Source of the DNA: a bacterium
GTDB taxonomy: Bacteria > SZUA-182 > DTGQ01
Direction: 5' to 3'
Assembly (NCBI GenBank): GCA_040752695.1
Contig: JBFMGO010000007.1
Location: 1-64,000 of the forward strand
Length of the DNA stretch: 64,000 nt
In this document: positions 33,853 to 41,521 of the stretch, piece by piece
Position numbering within the stretch: position 1 is the stretch's first letter
Layout: each line of letters begins with the position of its first letter
The notes under the pieces: model-generated
Told to the model about the DNA's origin: nothing
What the model saw: the letters and a program-made list of their open reading frames with translations, nothing else
Databases searched by the model: none
Made by a program: the position numbers and the translations under genes

Positions 33853-36234
33853 TCATACTCCGGCCCCTTGGGCTTCCCTGCATGGCAGCGTCTTCCGGGG
33901 AATTGCAAAGCTGAAGGTTGTCCCTGCTCCCAGCTTCGATTCGCACCAGATGTGCCCGCCATGTCGGCGGAGCAAGGTTTTCACATAGGCTAATCCCATT
34001 CCCTCTCCCGGTTTATCCTGAACTCCGGCCCGGCGGAAGATTTCGAATACTTTATGTATGTCGTCCTCGGCTATTCCGCGTCCATTATCGCGGAAGTGAA
34101 AAATGGTTTCTTCGTGGCTGCACTCCGCGCTCATTTCAATCTCTAAAGGCCGGTCGGGATGGAAATATTTTATGGCGTTATCCAAAAGATTACCCATGAT
34201 CTGCTCAATATCGGTTCTATCAACGACTATCTCAGGCAATTTCCCCACGATTACCTGAGCGCTGCATTGCTCAAGCTGGTGCGCCATCGTCTTCACGATA
34301 GATTGAACGACTGCCCCGGTGTCTACCAGTTCGAGCCGATGCTCTCTGTGTCCGAGGCGCGATAATTTCAGGATGGAATTGATCTGCCTATCCATCCTTT
34401 GAACCGATGACCTGATAAATTCCAGAGCTTCGGGCATATCTTCCTTAAAAGCACGGGAAAGAGTCTCCCGGTCCTCCTCGTCGATCCGGGGCAGGTATTT
34501 CTCTATGACGGATAACCCTTCTTTTACTGCCAAAGAAAGTTCATCTGAAAAGCCTTTGATATTAACCAGAGGTACCCGCAAATCATGGGAGACGATGTAG
34601 GCAAACGATTTCAATTCCTCGTTGGCTTCTTTCACCTCTTCAGCGGAAAACCGCAGTTTCTCCTCTGCACGTTTTTGTTCGGTTATATCCATGGCTATAC
34701 ATACTATCCCCTCTACCTTGCCGTCACTATCACGCATCACTGAGCCGGAGAAGAGTACCGGTATTTTTCGTCCCCCCTTGGACAAATAGGTTTTTTCCTC
34801 GTTGGCGATAACCTGTTTACCCGTACCATGTTCCGGATCTCCGAATAATAACCCGAACAGCAGATCTTCCTCTCTTTCTTCTGTAAAAATCATCCCAATC
34901 GGCTGATTTAAAAGTTCATCCCTTGTATAACCCAAAAGGTCCAAAGTGGCCTGATTGACCATGATAATCGCAGCCTCCGGCGACACCACGATCAGGCTGT
35001 CGGCCATTGTGGAAATAATGTTGTCCACATAATTTTTGGAAACCGTGCTCTTTTTCAGGTCCTGGGTCATTTTTTGGAGAGATGCCGCCAGTTGGCCGAT
35101 TTCGCCCTTCGCCCTGACTTCAATCCGGGTATCCAGACTTCCCATGCCGATACGGGTTGCAGCATCCGTGAGTGTGGTAACGGGCCGGGAGATGGAGATG
35201 GAGAAAAAGGCCCCCATGAGAACAGCCAACAAGGTTACGGCCAGAGAGACAATCAGGATATCTCTCTTGAGCTTATTCACGGGAGCGAAAATCGCCTTTG
35301 TTTCGTGATCTACCATGAAAACCATGCCTAGCAGATGAGACCTCGAATGTGCATGCCCGGATAACATTTCGCCATGCCGGGCATTGTAAGCCAGAAATAC
35401 GAATGTCTGTCTTTGCCTGTGGTTTTCAATTCGGGACAATAAACGGCTATTATCCTCCAGCATAGTAAATTCATCGGTAGAATAAAGCAGCCTTCCCCGC
35501 TGATCGATGAGCTTATAGAAAGCTCTCTGTTTTTTGTGCAGCCTGATTGTTTCGAATTTTTTTATTATTCTCGCTATATCTTCGATATTCAAAACAGCTC
35601 TCATTGCACCAATAAAATGACCATTCTTATCATTAATTCTTATCCCGATCTCCAAAGCGTATATATTTGAACTTTCATCGTAAATGACATCTCCTATGGC
35701 TAGGTCGTTCTTTTTCATCTCCTGCCACCATTTTTTATCATCCTGCCTGAAGTCGGCCGCTTTTTCGGTTTGAGCAGCAATAGCTCCATATTTATTGGTT
35801 ACCACTATTTCCCCGAAAACTTCATAACCGTATTTTTGTCTATAATATTCTGATACTTCGCGCAATTCCACTGCTGTTTTCCTATTCAATAATCCCTGCA
35901 TAAAAGGAGTTACGGTGCTCTTTGGTGCTAAAATCCATGCTTGATTCTTTTGATGAATATACTCCTGTATATTGTCCAATTCTTCATACGCCTGGTTCGA
36001 TGCTTTGATGCATTCTTGCAACACGGTATCATTGCAATATCCCTCAAGGGATTCAATCCGTTGAAAAATATTTGTTTCTATTTCATCCATAATCCCGGCA
36101 GCCAGAGTCATCGAACTTTCTTCGATAGATTTCTGCAAAGCTTCCTGACTCCTTACAATAGCAAGGTATCCTGCCAGTGAGATAAGAAAAGCAATCGCCA
36201 AAAATCCCATGATCAACTTATAGCGTATTTTCAT
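33853..36234 (-). CDS. Cache-HAMP-PAS sensor histidine kinase
   Basis: Likely start MKIRYKL at 36234; TMs, HAMP, PAS, SHDLRVPL H-box, NLLDNAIKY, DNGRGI and GEGMGL. Confidence 0.92.
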   Translation of the reverse strand: MKIRYKLIMGFLAIAFLISLAGYLAIVRSQEALQKSIEESSMTLAAGIMDEIETNIFQRIESLEGYCNDTVLQECIKASNQAYEELDNIQEYIHQKNQAWILAPKSTVTPFMQGLLNRKTAVELREVSEYYRQKYGYEVFGEIVVTNKYGAIAAQTEKAADFRQDDKKWWQEMKKNDLAIGDVIYDESSNIYALEIGIRINDKNGHFIGAMRAVLNIEDIARIIKKFETIRLHKKQRAFYKLIDQRGRLLYSTDEFTMLEDNSRLLSRIENHRQRQTFVFLAYNARHGEMLSGHAHSRSHLLGMVFMVDHETKAIFAPVNKLKRDILIVSLAVTLLAVLMGAFFSISISRPVTTLTDAATRIGMGSLDTRIEVRAKGEIGQLAASLQKMTQDLKKSTVSKNYVDNIISTMADSLIVVSPEAAIIMVNQATLDLLGYTRDELLNQPIGMIFTEEREEDLLFGLLFGDPEHGTGKQVIANEEKTYLSKGGRKIPVLFSGSVMRDSDGKVEGIVCIAMDITEQKRAEEKLRFSAEEVKEANEELKSFAYIVSHDLRVPLVNIKGFSDELSLAVKEGLSVIEKYLPRIDEEDRETLSRAFKEDMPEALEFIRSSVQRMDRQINSILKLSRLGHREHRLELVDTGAVVQSIVKTMAHQLEQCSAQVIVGKLPEIVVDRTDIEQIMGNLLDNAIKYFHPDRPLEIEMSAECSHEETIFHFRDNGRGIAEDDIHKVFEIFRRAGVQDKPGEGMGLAYVKTLLRRHGGHIWCESKLGAGTTFSFAIPRKTLPCREAQGAGV

Positions 36235-36390
36235 TCCCGCTTTTCTCCATGGCTGTTTTCTCTCCAATAGCGGTATCGGTGGATACCGGCCGCTTATTCG
36301 GGAATACTTCCTGCCGCTCAAGGGATAGCCGATTTCCATTATTCAGGAGCCATAATAATGAGCCTTTTACAGGAAACAATTCATAAAATT

Positions 36391-36419
36391 TTGACATTGG
36401 CAAGAAAATTGAGTATGAT
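36391..36419 (+). promoter_or_regulatory. Sigma-70 promoter for the dcd-like islet
   Basis: TTGACA (36391-36396), 17 bp, TATGAT (36414-36419). Confidence 0.7.
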
Positions 36420-36504
36420 AAATTTATATCCTCATTATTCCGGTTATGCCATTCAAGTCTATGTAGTTTCTATATAATTTCAATAATCTCAAATCGAGGC
36501 ATAA

Positions 36505-37134
36505 ATGATTAAGGATGGAGCCTTAATAGATAAAGATATCAAAGCATTAATGATGGAAGGGGTAAAAATCGTTGATCCTTTCGAAGAGAGTTTCTTACAG
36601 CCCGCCTCTATAGACCTGCAATTAGGAAATACCCTCTATACCTACAGTATGGAAGATTATGTTTTAGGAGAAGAGATCGACGACTGCAAGGTAGAGCAAA
36701 ACACATTGAAAGAATACACGTTACTGAACGGCAAGGTTGTTTACGTTGGCCTCCATGAAAAGATAACGATACCTGAAAACATACTTGGTCTTATAGTACC
36801 GAGAAGCAGTATTACAAGATTAGGTATATCAATTACTCCAATCTATGTAAATCCCGGATACAGAGGACAGCCGCCGCTGACAATCGTCAATAACAGTGGC
36901 AGCAACATTATCTTAAGGCCCGGAACAAGGGCAGTACAGTTACTTTTATTCTTTCTGTCAGGAATCCCTGAAAGAATTTATGGTAGTGCTGCCGATGCCA
37001 AGTATCTTGACGAAAAGGCTGATTACTCGAAATTGCATATGGATGAAGAAATAAAAAGAGCGATAAACGAGGTTCTGGAACAGGAAACATCAGATCTTTT
37101 TAAAAAGGTAAAAGAAAAAATCCTCCATGAATAA
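36505..37134 (+). CDS. dCTP deaminase/dUTPase-fold protein with substituted catalytic residues
   Basis: LQPASIDLQLG, RSSITRLG, VNPGYRG, RPG.RAVQL and Y.....AKY motifs; the canonical DPG and L-E positions read NPG and L-T. Confidence 0.85.
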   Translation: MIKDGALIDKDIKALMMEGVKIVDPFEESFLQPASIDLQLGNTLYTYSMEDYVLGEEIDDCKVEQNTLKEYTLLNGKVVYVGLHEKITIPENILGLIVPRSSITRLGISITPIYVNPGYRGQPPLTIVNNSGSNIILRPGTRAVQLLLFFLSGIPERIYGSAADAKYLDEKADYSKLHMDEEIKRAINEVLEQETSDLFKKVKEKILHE

Positions 37135-37580
37135 GCGGCAGGAAGCTGAAAAAACCATTTTAAAATACGTTACTGACTTGATTTCTTTATCAAGTCTTAC
37201 TAAAATTTTACCAAAATAAACCATCTCATCTAAAAGAGTTTAATGAGGCAGATTTCAAAAGAATCATCAATCCAATGGTAATATTTTCAGTGATAGAAGA
37301 TTATAACAAAGTAATTCTCAGTGACGAAATTAAAAAGATTGTGATCAATGACTGCAAAGATGCTCTGATGAAACGAACCAGCCTTGATAAGTGGCTGGAA
37401 GCGGGAATAGTCATAACGACTGTTATTCTTACCATTATTTTCTTTTTGTTATCAACGTCGTTAACTCCTGACCTGCAAACCATCAAAAATTCTATCTGGG
37501 CTGTGAAAATCACTTCCAGTGCGGCTTTTGTTTTGTTAATAATCGAATTAGTACTTTATATAATTCTTAAATATAAATGA
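37127..37580 (+). pseudogene. Frameshifted gene for a ~150-aa protein with two C-terminal TM helices (fragments 37127-37219 and 37182-37580)
   Basis: ATG at 37127 overlaps the dcd stop (ATGAATAA) and closes after 30 codons; the +1 frame is open from 37182 to 37580 and encodes the 2-TM domain. Confidence 0.6.
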
Positions 37581-37597
37581 GTTTTCTATATCATCAA

Positions 37598-37752
37598 CTC
37601 ACTACCGGACACTTTTACTGTCATTCCCGCGAAAGCGGGAATCCATGCATGGTTGCAGCCCCCCCTGGATTCCCGCCTACGCGGGAATGACGGGAAATGT
37701 CTGTACTTACTGACGTATACAGAATCATAGATAAAAAGTGTCCGGTAGAGAG
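37598..37752. mobile_element. 155-bp MITE-like element with 19-bp terminal inverted repeats and 8-bp target duplication, carrying a REP/dRS3-like palindrome pair
   Basis: CTCACTACCGGACACTTTT (37598-37616) versus AAAAGTGTCCGGTAGAGAG (37734-37752), 1 mismatch; ATCATCAA at 37590-37597 and 37753-37760. Confidence 0.8.
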
Positions 37753-37798
37753 ATCATCAATTCAGACAGGCTATCCTGGTCCCCCGCCTTTAAAAGTT

Positions 37799-37865
37799 AC
37801 CTGTTCCAACCGGCCCGTAAAATCAAAATGAGACCTGTTCAAACCGGCTGTAAAATCAAAATGAG
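37799..37865. repeat. Imperfect tandem duplication, 2 x ~34 bp
   Basis: ACCTGTTCCAACCGGCCCGTAAAATCAAAATGAG followed by ACCTGTTCAAACCGGCTGTAAAATCAAAATGAG. Confidence 0.8.
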
Positions 37866-37977
37866 AAGAGCATGATCATTTTTCTTGCTTTTTCCTTCTT
37901 CTCATATATTATTAAGGCAAACTTTCCCTTTTTCTTCCATATTCGAAACCCATAAACGAAAGGAATATGAGACAACC

Positions 37978-39721: not shown

Positions 39722-41521
39722 TTATTCTGGATTTTGATTTCTGCTCTTGCTTTCTTTCCCCAGGTTTCCGAGTGCATCCATGTGCGTCTGCCACTGTTTC
39801 ATCTCCTTTTGCACGGTACTGCCAGTCTCCCCCTGCATTGCACCGCTGTTGCTTTCTTTACGCAGGTTTCCGAGTGCATCCATTTGTGTCTGCCACTGTT
39901 TCATCTCCTTTTGCACGGTACTGCCAGTCTCCCCCTGCATTGCACCGCTGTTGCTTTCTTGTTCCCTCCCTTTTCCGGGGGAAGGGTCGGAGGGGGGGGA
40001 ATCCTGCTCTCTGCCGGTGTCCGGTTTCTGGCAGCTTGAAACCAGATAGGGAGTAAGAAGGATAACCAGTTCCTTCCTTTGGGTCTGGGTGGATGACTTG
40101 GAAAACAGGAGCCTTCCCAGAATGGGAATTTTCCCGAGAACGGGCAGGCGGCCTCTGGCTTTAATTTCCGAATTTCTGATCAGCCCGCCGATAAAGATTG
40201 TCTCCCCTGCCTTGACCATAACCGAGGTAGTAACCGATGTCGTGGTCTTTTGTGGCAATCCCCCGCTGAGTACACCGTCGCTGACTTCCGGTTGAATATT
40301 CAGGAGGATATTGCCGTCTTCGGCTATATGGGGAGTCAATTTCAGTTGGGTGCCGATATCCAGAAATTCTACACTTTGCATGGTGCTGGTTTGCGTGGTT
40401 GTGGTGAGGTAATAGCCCAGTTTACCGCCAATGAGAATCTGGGCCGCTTTTCCGTCCAGCACCAGGATGCGCGGCTTGGCCAGGGTTTTTACATCGCCTT
40501 TTTTCTCCAGGGCATTCAGCTTGAAGTAGAAATGGGGGCTGATGACGCCAAAGAGAAACTGTGAAGTATCCCGCGAACTGAGACTTTGATAGGATACCTG
40601 TGAGTTGCCCTGACTGGACGAATCCCCGGAAATTGAGCCTGGTGGAAGGGCCGTCTGTCCCGGTGAGATAAGATAACCGTCTGCATTGCCCCCTTGAGAG
40701 AACGTGCCGCTCCAGTCGATACCATAAGTCATATCGTCACTGAGGTTAATTTCCAGAATCTGGGCCTCAATCATGGCCTGCTCGGGTGGGATATCCAGGG
40801 AGCGGATAATCCTTTCAACTTCTTCGAGTTCTTTATCAGAACCCTCAACCAGGAGCATCCCCTCCTGCGGGTAAACCGTTGTCCTGGGTTTCGTGCCCTC
40901 CGATTTCTCGAAAGACCATTGAATCACTTTTGATAATTCCTTAATATCAGCATAGTTGATATGAAACACCTTGACCGACCGGAGAACATCTTTCTTTTCC
41001 TCTTTTCCCTCTTTTCCATCTATTCCCTTTTCTTCCTCCTTCCCCGCTTCACCCTGATCCTTTTCCGTTGCTTCTTTGAGACTGCTCTTTTCCTTTTCCC
41101 CCTGGCTGAGGATATAAAGTGAACCCTCTTTGGTCCAGATCAATCCCATGATTCTGGCAATTGCGGTTAATGAATCTTCCAGGTTCGCCTCTTTAAGATT
41201 CAAGCTTATGCGACCCTTCACCTCAGGGGTGCTCACGATATTGGCTCTGTACTTCATGGAAAGGGCCTTGAGCAGGGTATTGATATCCATATCCCTGATA
41301 CTCATGGCAGAGCTTGCGTAGGCACCTTCCATATCCTCTGCGGTACTGCCCGATCCGGGAACGATAAGCAGCACAATGCCTGCCAGAAAGGTACTTACCA
41401 ATAAGGTATGTACCAGTAAGAAAAGGTTTCCTTTTAAAGCCGATGGCTGGTGAATGGTCTGTCTGCTCCTGAATTTCTTCCTTCTGGTGCTCATTTTCCT
41501 CATGTCCCCCTTTGTTCGCAA
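39722..41521 (-). CDS. Secretin (GspD/PilQ family); exact start uncertain
   Basis: LDIPPEQAMIEAQILEI, AKPRILVLDGKAAQILIG, GETIFIGGLI, PVLGKIPILGRLLF and ELVILLTP. Confidence 0.92.
   Translation of the reverse strand: MRTKGDMRKMSTRRKKFRSRQTIHQPSALKGNLFLLVHTLLVSTFLAGIVLLIVPGSGSTAEDMEGAYASSAMSIRDMDINTLLKALSMKYRANIVSTPEVKGRISLNLKEANLEDSLTAIARIMGLIWTKEGSLYILSQGEKEKSSLKEATEKDQGEAGKEEEKGIDGKEGKEEKKDVLRSVKVFHINYADIKELSKVIQWSFEKSEGTKPRTTVYPQEGMLLVEGSDKELEEVERIIRSLDIPPEQAMIEAQILEINLSDDMTYGIDWSGTFSQGGNADGYLISPGQTALPPGSISGDSSSQGNSQVSYQSLSSRDTSQFLFGVISPHFYFKLNALEKKGDVKTLAKPRILVLDGKAAQILIGGKLGYYLTTTTQTSTMQSVEFLDIGTQLKLTPHIAEDGNILLNIQPEVSDGVLSGGLPQKTTTSVTTSVMVKAGETIFIGGLIRNSEIKARGRLPVLGKIPILGRLLFSKSSTQTQRKELVILLTPYLVSSCQKPDTGREQDSPPSDPSPGKGREQESNSGAMQGETGSTVQKEMKQWQTQMDALGNLRKESNSGAMQGETGSTVQKEMKQWQTHMDALGNLGKESKSRNQNPE
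39747..39960. repeat. In-frame 102-bp tandem repeat (x2) in the secretin C-terminal tail
   Basis: ESNSGAMQGETGSTVQKEMKQWQT(Q/H)MDALGNL(R/G)K occurs twice; TTGCTTTCTT recurs at 39747, 39849 and 39951. Confidence 0.95.

Follow-up and report, generated by a model that had tools for sequence, protein, structure and literature searches.

A putative dCTP deaminase-fold pseudoenzyme coupled to a two-helix membrane protein as a candidate nucleotide-sensing defence or exclusion module

The C-terminal lid of dCTP deaminase (Dcd) closes over the bound nucleotide, and the E138A, E145A/Q and D95N variants of Dcd and dUTPase enzymes are kinetically dead. A sensor is combined with a small transmembrane (TM) effector in several defences, among them those with the Pycsar or CBASS TM effectors, the retron 2TM effectors, RexAB and the SLATT-type 2TM domains. 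The anti-phage dCTP deaminases have the zinc-dependent cytidine deaminase fold. Anti-phage dCTP deaminase and dGTPase systems act by active nucleotide depletion (Tal et al. 2022), and passages of a 2026 review (PMC13276650) describe only these. The present study concerns a 64,000-nucleotide stretch of bacterial DNA (contig JBFMGO010000007.1 of assembly GCA_040752695.1, lineage SZUA-182; DTGQ01), referred to below as the window, and within it an islet at positions 36391-37580 that carries the gene of a Dcd-like protein and, overlapping its stop codon, the start of a gene for a small membrane protein. With a probability of roughly 0.55 we read the pair, from its sequence, as a non-catalytic deoxynucleoside triphosphate (dNTP) binding sensor coupled to a membrane effector, the two serving to defend against phage or to exclude it. 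The module is conserved and undescribed, and a good candidate for defence or exclusion by nucleotide sensing.

The Dcd-like protein shares fold and family with the homotrimeric Dcd and Dcd:Dut enzymes (E. coli, 1xs1; M. tuberculosis, 2qxx/2qlp; M. jannaschii, 1ogh), and has in common with them the RSSxxR phosphate motif, the Gln and the Tyr/Lys/Tyr lid residues. It differs from these enzymes in the replacement of Asp by Asn and of Glu by Thr, in its longer C-terminus, in its coupling to a membrane protein and in being apparently mobile and patchily distributed rather than housekeeping. The engineered inactive variants resemble it in the kinds of substitution and in the two positions affected, whereas here the substitutions are natural, conserved in the clade and present together. 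The theme of defence centred on dC nucleotides would be shared with the anti-phage dCTP deaminase, but that system is an active enzyme that depletes dCTP, and its PADLOC model matched no member of the present family. The layout, a cytosolic ligand-binding part joined to a 2-TM part on mobile elements, is shared with the systems that couple a sensor to a TM effector, but there was no sequence relationship to them by Pfam, Foldseek or Atlas, and no signalling-nucleotide synthase lay beside the pair. The pair is undescribed in that PADLOC has no model for it, the partner belongs to no Pfam family and the literature searched has no entry on it. Neither a Dcd fold with a TM partner nor DUF1653 in defence was found in full-text searches, whose scope lay outside subscription journals and to which the supplementary tables of catalogues, which may list such genes, did not contribute.

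The protein matched Pfam DCD (3.2e-25, PF22769) and dUTPase (8.6e-9), and exceeded the cut-off of NCBIfam TIGR02274 'dCTP deaminase' (100.6 bits against 92.8). The best Dcd chain in the Protein Data Bank (PDB) was that of M. tuberculosis (2qxx, phmmer 1.4e-14). Alignment to the solved Dcd enzymes agreed with the residue changes reported in the first-pass annotation. RSSITRLG (RSSxxRLG) was retained and YVNPGYRGQPPLTIVN was aligned opposite FIDPGFSGHITLELSN of M. tuberculosis Dcd:Dut and RIDPGWSGCIVLEFYN of E. coli Dcd, with Asn116 in place of the DPG Asp (the dUTPase-type catalytic or sugar-binding Asp) and Thr126, aligned to the Glu of LELSN/LEFYN, in place of the deaminase Glu (E138, E. coli numbering). 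The phosphate and lid residues R100, S101, S102, R105, Q145, Y159, K166 and Y167 were kept and were invariant in a 13-member clade, in which Asn116 was present in 12 of 13 members (Gln in P0012) and Thr126 in all. The 13-position signature was RSSRNPGTNQYKY against the canonical RSSRDPGENQYKY; 11 of the 13 positions equalled the Dcd consensus and only the two catalytic ones differed. The C-terminal tail described earlier was also confirmed: it spans approximately residues 173-209 and is about 28 residues longer than in E. coli Dcd, the alignment to which stopped at query residue 172 of 209 and chain residue 184 of 193.

A word-indexed protein search returned no more than 13 further close relatives (E ≤ 3.3e-37), which share the pattern NPGY..P[LI]TI apart from Gln for Asn in one, and a search for longer homologues gave none above 366 residues. 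Public records name the homologues 'dCTP deaminase'. The INPHARED phages contained canonical Dcd only, at ≤34% identity. According to the titles of their PDB entries, E. coli Dcd E138A was crystallised with dCTP (1xs4) or dTTP (2j4q), and M. jannaschii E145A/E145Q (2hxd, 3gf0) and phage phi11 dUTPase D95N (4wrk) are inactive forms; substitutions of this kind would therefore leave a ligand-binding protein. Because the binding residues are kept and the catalytic Asp and Glu are lost, the Dcd-like protein would probably bind but not convert a pyrimidine dNTP, whether dCTP, dUTP, dTTP or a phage-modified analogue.

The association with a membrane protein was evaluated at 160 loci, each with a Dcd-family open reading frame (ORF), from scans of genomes and metagenome contigs. 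Classed by the two catalytic positions, 115 loci were canonical (DE), 22 were of a short QE/AE type, 16 had Asn with Thr, Val or Leu in a protein of about 200-230 residues (N[T/V/L], or N-type, loci), five had Asn-Gln in a protein of 311-364 residues and two were of other kinds. A partner was scored when an ORF lay no more than 30 nt from the stop codon, encoded 100-170 residues or was cut by the contig end, and had its first TM segment after residue 60. By this measure a partner was present at 10 of the 16 N[T/V/L] loci, at none of the 115 canonical loci and at none of the 22 short QE/AE loci, and remnants were seen at three more, in keeping with the conserved downstream TM gene that the first-pass annotation had called for. 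In the intact pairs the spacing from stop to start was -3 to +11 nt. The loci that missed the partner were varied: at L109 the same partner was interrupted by a stop at codon 7, L116 had TM-like segments in another frame, L098 had a 55-residue 2-TM ORF, the L019 contig ended after 68 partner residues, the Dcd gene itself was split at L134, and at L097 the partner was absent and the next gene was dethiobiotin-synthetase-like, as judged from its N-terminal sequence alone. The named hosts were Desulfobacteraceae, Thiomargarita, Novosphingobium, Desulfovibrionaceae and Methanothrix.

The partners were highly divergent, with a mean column identity of 26% and no invariant column, and had a single shared architecture. 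In the AlphaFold2 (AF2) model of the L017 partner (predicted local distance difference test score, pLDDT, 85; predicted template modelling score, pTM, 0.42), helix 3-24 was followed by a long helix (33-103) that extended into TM1, and helix 106-133 formed TM2. The four intact partners examined matched no Pfam family, the only hit being DUF4231, presumably a member of the SLATT clan, at E=0.71 in one of them; Atlas scores were ≤0.81 and Foldseek against the PDB returned nothing at E ≤ 0.001. A separate conserved synteny was seen at loci L071, L080, L119, L137, L144, L167 and L174, where a canonical Dcd of KSSR...HY type was followed, 10-16 nt downstream, by an ORF of 72-93 residues with two predicted TM helices; at least some of these loci were from Solirubrobacterales-type metagenome-assembled genomes.

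Sensor and membrane part were also found in one chain. The Asn-Gln proteins of L042, L066 and L079 and protein P0016 had two C-terminal TM segments, and a profile of five fused proteins searched against 1.84 billion representatives retrieved 281 proteins at E ≤ 1e-30. Among the best 150 of the 281, the Asp position was occupied by Asn in 146, by Asp in one and by Gln in one, and two were fragments without this column. The Glu position in the same 150 was Gln in 92 (including the two fragments), Glu in 24, Thr in 11 and Met in six; Val, Ile and Pro occurred four times each and Ala, Ser and Arg once each. At least two TM segments followed the domain in 70 of the best 150, and many of the others were fragments. 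The Asn is the constant of the wider family, and because the Glu position varies, the deaminase position appears to be free of catalytic constraint.

The fused protein of Tautonia (L042), modelled with AF2 from a 69-sequence alignment (pLDDT 91.5, pTM 0.80), had a beta domain at residues 1-165, then a lid, helices 193-208, 213-223 and 228-240, a long helix 249-288 and helix 296-318. This order reads as a Dcd domain, a lid, three linker helices and a long helix passing into a TM hairpin. Foldseek matched the N-terminal part to E. coli Dcd and to M. tuberculosis Dcd:Dut, the latter with 39% identity and a TM-score of 0.88 by target. In a FastTree phylogeny of 76 domains the split group (support 0.96), the fused group (0.98) and the canonical group (0.88) were separate; the tree does not place the root, and no single origin is claimed from it. 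The family is rare, with one full-length member in a 401-genome sample of one other phylum.

Two subgroups extended the architecture. In proteins of 480-610 residues DUF1653 was fused N-terminally (P0133, P0141, P0154, P0156 and P0165 are of note among the DUF1653 proteins). A second subgroup of about 365 residues, with the motif RSRRNPGQ, had no TM segment and a C-terminal domain of about 190 residues, and formed its own clade (support 0.98); it comprised P0122, P0126, P0138, P0150, P0158 and some 20 further proteins among the best 150. DUF1653 (PF07866) was also encoded on its own, by a neighbouring gene, at L042, L079 and L184/L185 (a planctomycete, Treponema and two viral contigs). A sequence search gave no solved structure for DUF1653, and a DUF1653 search of the window's own genome gave no match, but the control for this search also gave none anywhere.

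The islet itself had a GC content of 35.5% against 49.0% for the window, the 0.08th percentile and the lowest value of 1257 sliding windows of equal size, which bears out the AT-richness noted earlier. The promoter read in the first-pass annotation (TTGACA-17-TATGAT) was borne out at 11 of 12 positions; it was the best of 11 promoter-like sites in 36200-37900, where 5.1 were expected. Among 41 related genomes a close homologue of the Dcd-like protein was found only in G002 (62% identity, E 4e-82), one of two congeners; the other congener lacked the gene. The G002 pair lies at a different genomic location, and the flanks of the islet are not syntenic. A separate 151-residue dut is encoded on contig 88 (dUTPase, 2.8e-29), an answer to the question of a canonical dcd or dut elsewhere in the genome. 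The Dcd-like protein was the only full-length DCD match in its own genome; among 13 genomes of the order such matches were confined to this genome (G000) and G002, and the others had partial, dut-sized matches or none. The lineage of the window appears to lack a canonical dcd, because of this pattern in the remaining genomes of the order; the collection covered the window's phylum with just 20 species genomes. The concern that this might be the genome's only vertically inherited dcd was not borne out, as the gene was carried by one of two congeners and by none of the 10 other genomes of the order. Because of the separate dut, the patchy occurrence in the order, the non-syntenic flanks and the lowest GC content, the islet is, by this sequence evidence, apparently a horizontal acquisition and the Dcd-like gene not a housekeeping gene.

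Specific defence genes were present at 5 of the 16 N-type loci, and recombinases or transposases and insertion sequences at 5 of the 16, in a small sample of related loci. The 13 canonical Dcd loci that served as controls (129 ORFs) had no specific defence gene and one weak recombinase match; the PADLOC matches at these loci were generic only, namely an ABC-ATPase ('mad3/AriA'), a methyltransferase ('mad2'), a TnpB/Cas12f-like gene, one oxidoreductase and one PDC-S44. A mad3/AriA/mad8 match at L079 was discarded as that of a generic ABC-ATPase, the same matches having occurred in the controls. Mobile-element genes comprised four tyrosine recombinases and an IS3-type transposase at L018, an Arm-type integrase and a replication protein at L020, an integrase at L026, and a serine recombinase with an SNc+LTD nuclease at L043. 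A 1226-residue type IIG restriction-modification/DrmMI-like gene (E 1.8e-100) was found at L021 and an AbiLi-like ATPase (4.6e-27) at L116, and at L050 IetA (2.7e-72) and IetS (1.4e-40) were directly downstream, with a PDC-S02 gene also present. An S24 repressor was directly upstream at L108 and L134, with Bro/Rha genes, and L134 had in addition an integrase and a type IV restriction endonuclease-like helicase.

Family members also occurred on four distinct viral or prophage contigs. L181 had an S24 repressor upstream and a DnaB helicase, L183 was flanked by P2-type tail genes and an integrase and then by an Acb2/Tad1-hairpin gene, and L184 and L185 had DUF1653 and a helix-turn-helix gene, together with a Prim-Pol/D5 primase in L184. 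Two of these neighbourhoods are of interest in their own right. At L183 the gene of the Acb2/Tad1-hairpin family (anti-CBASS/anti-Thoeris sponges) is directly 3' of the Dcd-like/TM pair and precedes a Cro/CI gene and an integrase in a P2-like prophage contig. At L050 the IetA-IetS pair begins 197 nt 3' of a fused Dcd-like-2TM gene, with DUF1016/PDC-S02 upstream, in a small defence island of a 9.3-Mb genome.

The partner gene in the window is interrupted. The overlap of its ATG with the Dcd stop codon was as described in the first-pass annotation, but the intact coupled 2-TM gene was not, since the frame stops after 30 codons and the remaining soluble helical part and both TM helices are carried by a 3' piece in the +1 frame. 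The N-terminus of the 5' piece (MNKRQEAEKTILKYV) aligned with the 'xRDEIKxxI' N-termini of the partners at other loci and in G002, and the 30-codon piece is taken as the true start of the gene because of this alignment with the partner family. Read through with X at the break (P0020), the product was 150 residues, the size of the intact partners. The 101-residue ORF within the 3' piece found only itself in a homologue search; the local partner matched no Pfam family, and the PADLOC matches for the fragment were at E 0.004 and 0.025 only. In G002 the partner ATG also overlaps the Dcd stop, 16 codons lead to a TGA and the gene continues in the +1 frame, and the soluble part is short by about 55 codons. 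The proportions of nonsynonymous (pN) and synonymous (pS) differences between the two genomes were 0.22 and 0.76 for the Dcd-like gene and 0.32 and 0.65 for the shared 2-TM region (77 codons, no stops). Because pN was below pS, both parts were subject to purifying selection through most of the divergence, and the breaks would therefore be recent and independent, or tolerated somehow. At 4 of about 20 loci a broken partner gene accompanied a Dcd-like gene that was intact, a pattern that would fit a costly or toxic effector. Because of the frame break the module in this genome and its sister species is probably disabled or attenuated, and the break in the window may be an assembly error.

The proposed mechanism begins with the Dcd-like protein as a presumed trimeric receptor for a pyrimidine dNTP. 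The partner, translationally coupled to it, would have an N-terminal helical domain that continues as one long helix into the 2-TM hairpin. Phage infection would alter the dNTP pool, and gain or loss of the ligand would order or release the lid and tail of the sensor, a change that might be passed, through a putative contact between the proteins, to the long helix and the TM hairpins of the partner. The membrane partner would then damage or depolarise the membrane, with abortive infection or superinfection exclusion as the outcome. A broader proposal is distinctly more tentative, and we lean against it: the pair may belong to a widespread, unnamed superfamily of nucleotide-gated membrane effectors in which a trimeric Dcd-fold pseudoenzyme, acting as a natural 'substrate trap', reads the pyrimidine dNTP pool and, by way of its lid and tail, opens a pore formed by three 2-TM hairpins, in split form, fused form or with DUF1653 added. 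The cues in the pool would be loss of dCTP, a rise in dUTP or phage-modified dCTP.

The suggestion in the first-pass annotation that a sensor gates a membrane effector was partly supported, by the pairing, the fusions, the separate dut and the patchy inheritance, but not in the matter of an intact local TM gene. Several observations weigh against a sensor with a membrane effector: 1) the local partner gene is broken, so that the module may be inactive in this organism, 2) the loss of Glu is, from the sequences, not universal, in that 24 of the best 150 fused relatives retain it, 3) no defence or mobile context was found at 7 of the 16 loci (L017, L042, L066, L079, L097, L100 and L101) or at the loci of the window and G002, 4) the context samples are small and the loci mutually related, 5) PADLOC-DB 2.0 gave no family for five Dcd-like or fused proteins (E ≤ 1 or ≤ 0.1) or for four intact partners, 6) hhalign of the split partner against the fused linker and TM segments gave a probability of 16.7%, by which homology is not established, and 7) the TM calls come from a simple 19-residue Kyte-Doolittle script rather than a dedicated TM predictor.

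Other explanations start from the same residues and the same gene order. A functional dCTP deaminase or dUTPase that provides dUMP by means of unusual catalytic residues would account for the score above the TIGR02274 cut-off, for the name 'dCTP deaminase' given to the homologues and for the single full-length DCD match in the genome. Such an enzyme is scarcely credible when both catalytic positions are replaced and the Glu position varies freely in the fused relatives, when a separate dut is present, when all 10 genomes of the order outside the genus and one congener do without a full-length Dcd, and when the islet is AT-rich and non-syntenic. A dead domain could also serve membrane-tethered nucleotide handling, sequestering or channelling a pyrimidine dNTP with the 2-TM protein as a mere anchor; variants of this would be a sponge, a chaperone of modified nucleotides or a subunit needing another enzyme. 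We consider such a role unlikely. The TM-less group of about 365 residues, which has the NPG motif and another C-terminal domain, and the recurrence of DUF1653 as a third part would fit it, but the pair is self-contained and has its own promoter in the window, neither ThyX nor any other nucleotide enzyme (Pfam, E ≤ 1e-5) was found in 101 neighbouring ORFs at 17 loci (16 N-type and G002), the flanks of the window's islet likewise had no ThyX, and repeated breakage confined to the TM gene fits a toxic effector better than an anchor.

Inactivation of the membrane gene, which is frequent, is equally what might be seen in an addiction or exclusion cassette of a mobile element, similar to a toxin-antitoxin or holin/antiholin pair, in which the Dcd-like protein restrains a membrane toxin and senses no nucleotide. 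The tight translational coupling and the integrases and prophage repressors adjoining the loci point the same way, but nucleotide and lid residues that are invariant in the clade are needless for a plain antitoxin, and the fused forms are one chain, unlike a labile antitoxin; we regard the cassette as quite unlikely. As for the frame break, it might represent +1 recoding that holds the effector low, at a stop codon whose context is AAA-TAA-A in the window and GAA-TGA-T in the sister species, given that in both members of the genus the gene continues in the +1 frame precisely at the stop and that the 2-TM region is still open and under purifying selection. The arrangement is limited to two genomes, every more distant pair keeps to a single frame, G002 is also short by the missing codons of the soluble part, the sequence has no Shine-Dalgarno-like stimulator or slippery run, and an assembly error is possible; recoding is accordingly a very unlikely account of the break.

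The coordinates of the features in the window and at the other loci are collected in Table 1. Genes of PAS/HAMP histidine kinases flank the islet on both sides, and the large genes neighbouring it are intact. The right-hand kinase has orthologues of 71-73% identity in G001 and G002, upstream of which the DNA is unrelated; the left-hand kinase had no match in either genome. The right boundary of the islet is a 165-bp palindromic element resembling a miniature inverted-repeat transposable element (MITE) or repetitive extragenic palindrome (REP). It is present in eight long copies in the genome including this one, the others being 83-95% identical, and its inner unit of 70-80 nt had about 70 matches in the genome, several of them at contig ends. 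An Rfam scan of 36200-37950 gave a single match at chance level. Elsewhere in the window, a secretin-like ORF of 599 residues ends in two tandem segments of about 35 residues (SNSGAMQGETGSTVQKEMKQWQT.MDALGNL.KES).

Table 1. Positions of the features of the islet, of other elements in the window and of selected genes at other loci.
Feature	Sequence	Position	Strand	Remarks
Sigma-70-type promoter, predicted	Window	36391..36419	+	-35 TTGACA 36391-36396, 17-nt spacer, -10 TATGAT 36414-36419; 11/12 consensus match only
Shine-Dalgarno-like GAGG	Window	36496..36499	+	5 nt 5' of the Dcd-like ATG; read from sequence
Dcd-fold protein, 209 residues	Window	36505..37134	+	Pfam DCD, TIGR02274, alignments to solved Dcd
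Partner gene, 5' piece	Window	37127..37219	+	ATG overlaps Dcd stop (ATGAATAA); 30 codons (MNKRQEAEKTILKYV...), TAA 37217-37219
Partner gene, 3' piece, +1 frame	Window	37182..37580	+	First ATG 37275; 101-residue ORF 37275-37580
Predicted TM helix 1	Window	37395..37451	+	Residues 41-59 of the 101-residue ORF; Kyte-Doolittle mean 2.50
Predicted TM helix 2	Window	37509..37565	+	Residues 79-97 of the 101-residue ORF; Kyte-Doolittle mean 2.39
Nested palindromic repeat, MITE/REP-like	Window	37593..37757	.	Outside the module; arms 37593-37616/37734-37757 and 37611-37645/37666-37700
Secretin-like ORF	Window	39722..41521	-
DUF1653 gene	L042	5486..5755	-
DUF1653 gene	L079	4296..4673	+
DUF1653 gene	L184	2427..2675	+
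Acb2/Tad1-hairpin gene	L183	6133..6390	+
IetA-IetS pair	L050	6217..9732	+

If the broader superfamily proposal holds, the module would represent a new class of system in which abortive infection or exclusion follows from direct sensing of deoxynucleotide metabolism. Depletion of dNTPs is an established form of phage defence, but the sensing of dNTPs by a dead metabolic enzyme with a membrane response would be new. The pair would provide a compact model, of two genes or of one, for an enzyme fold turned receptor, and would supply DUF1653 with a function. It would also point to systematic mis-annotation in the family, whose genes pass the NCBIfam cut-off and are named 'dCTP deaminase', yet are missing both catalytic residues.

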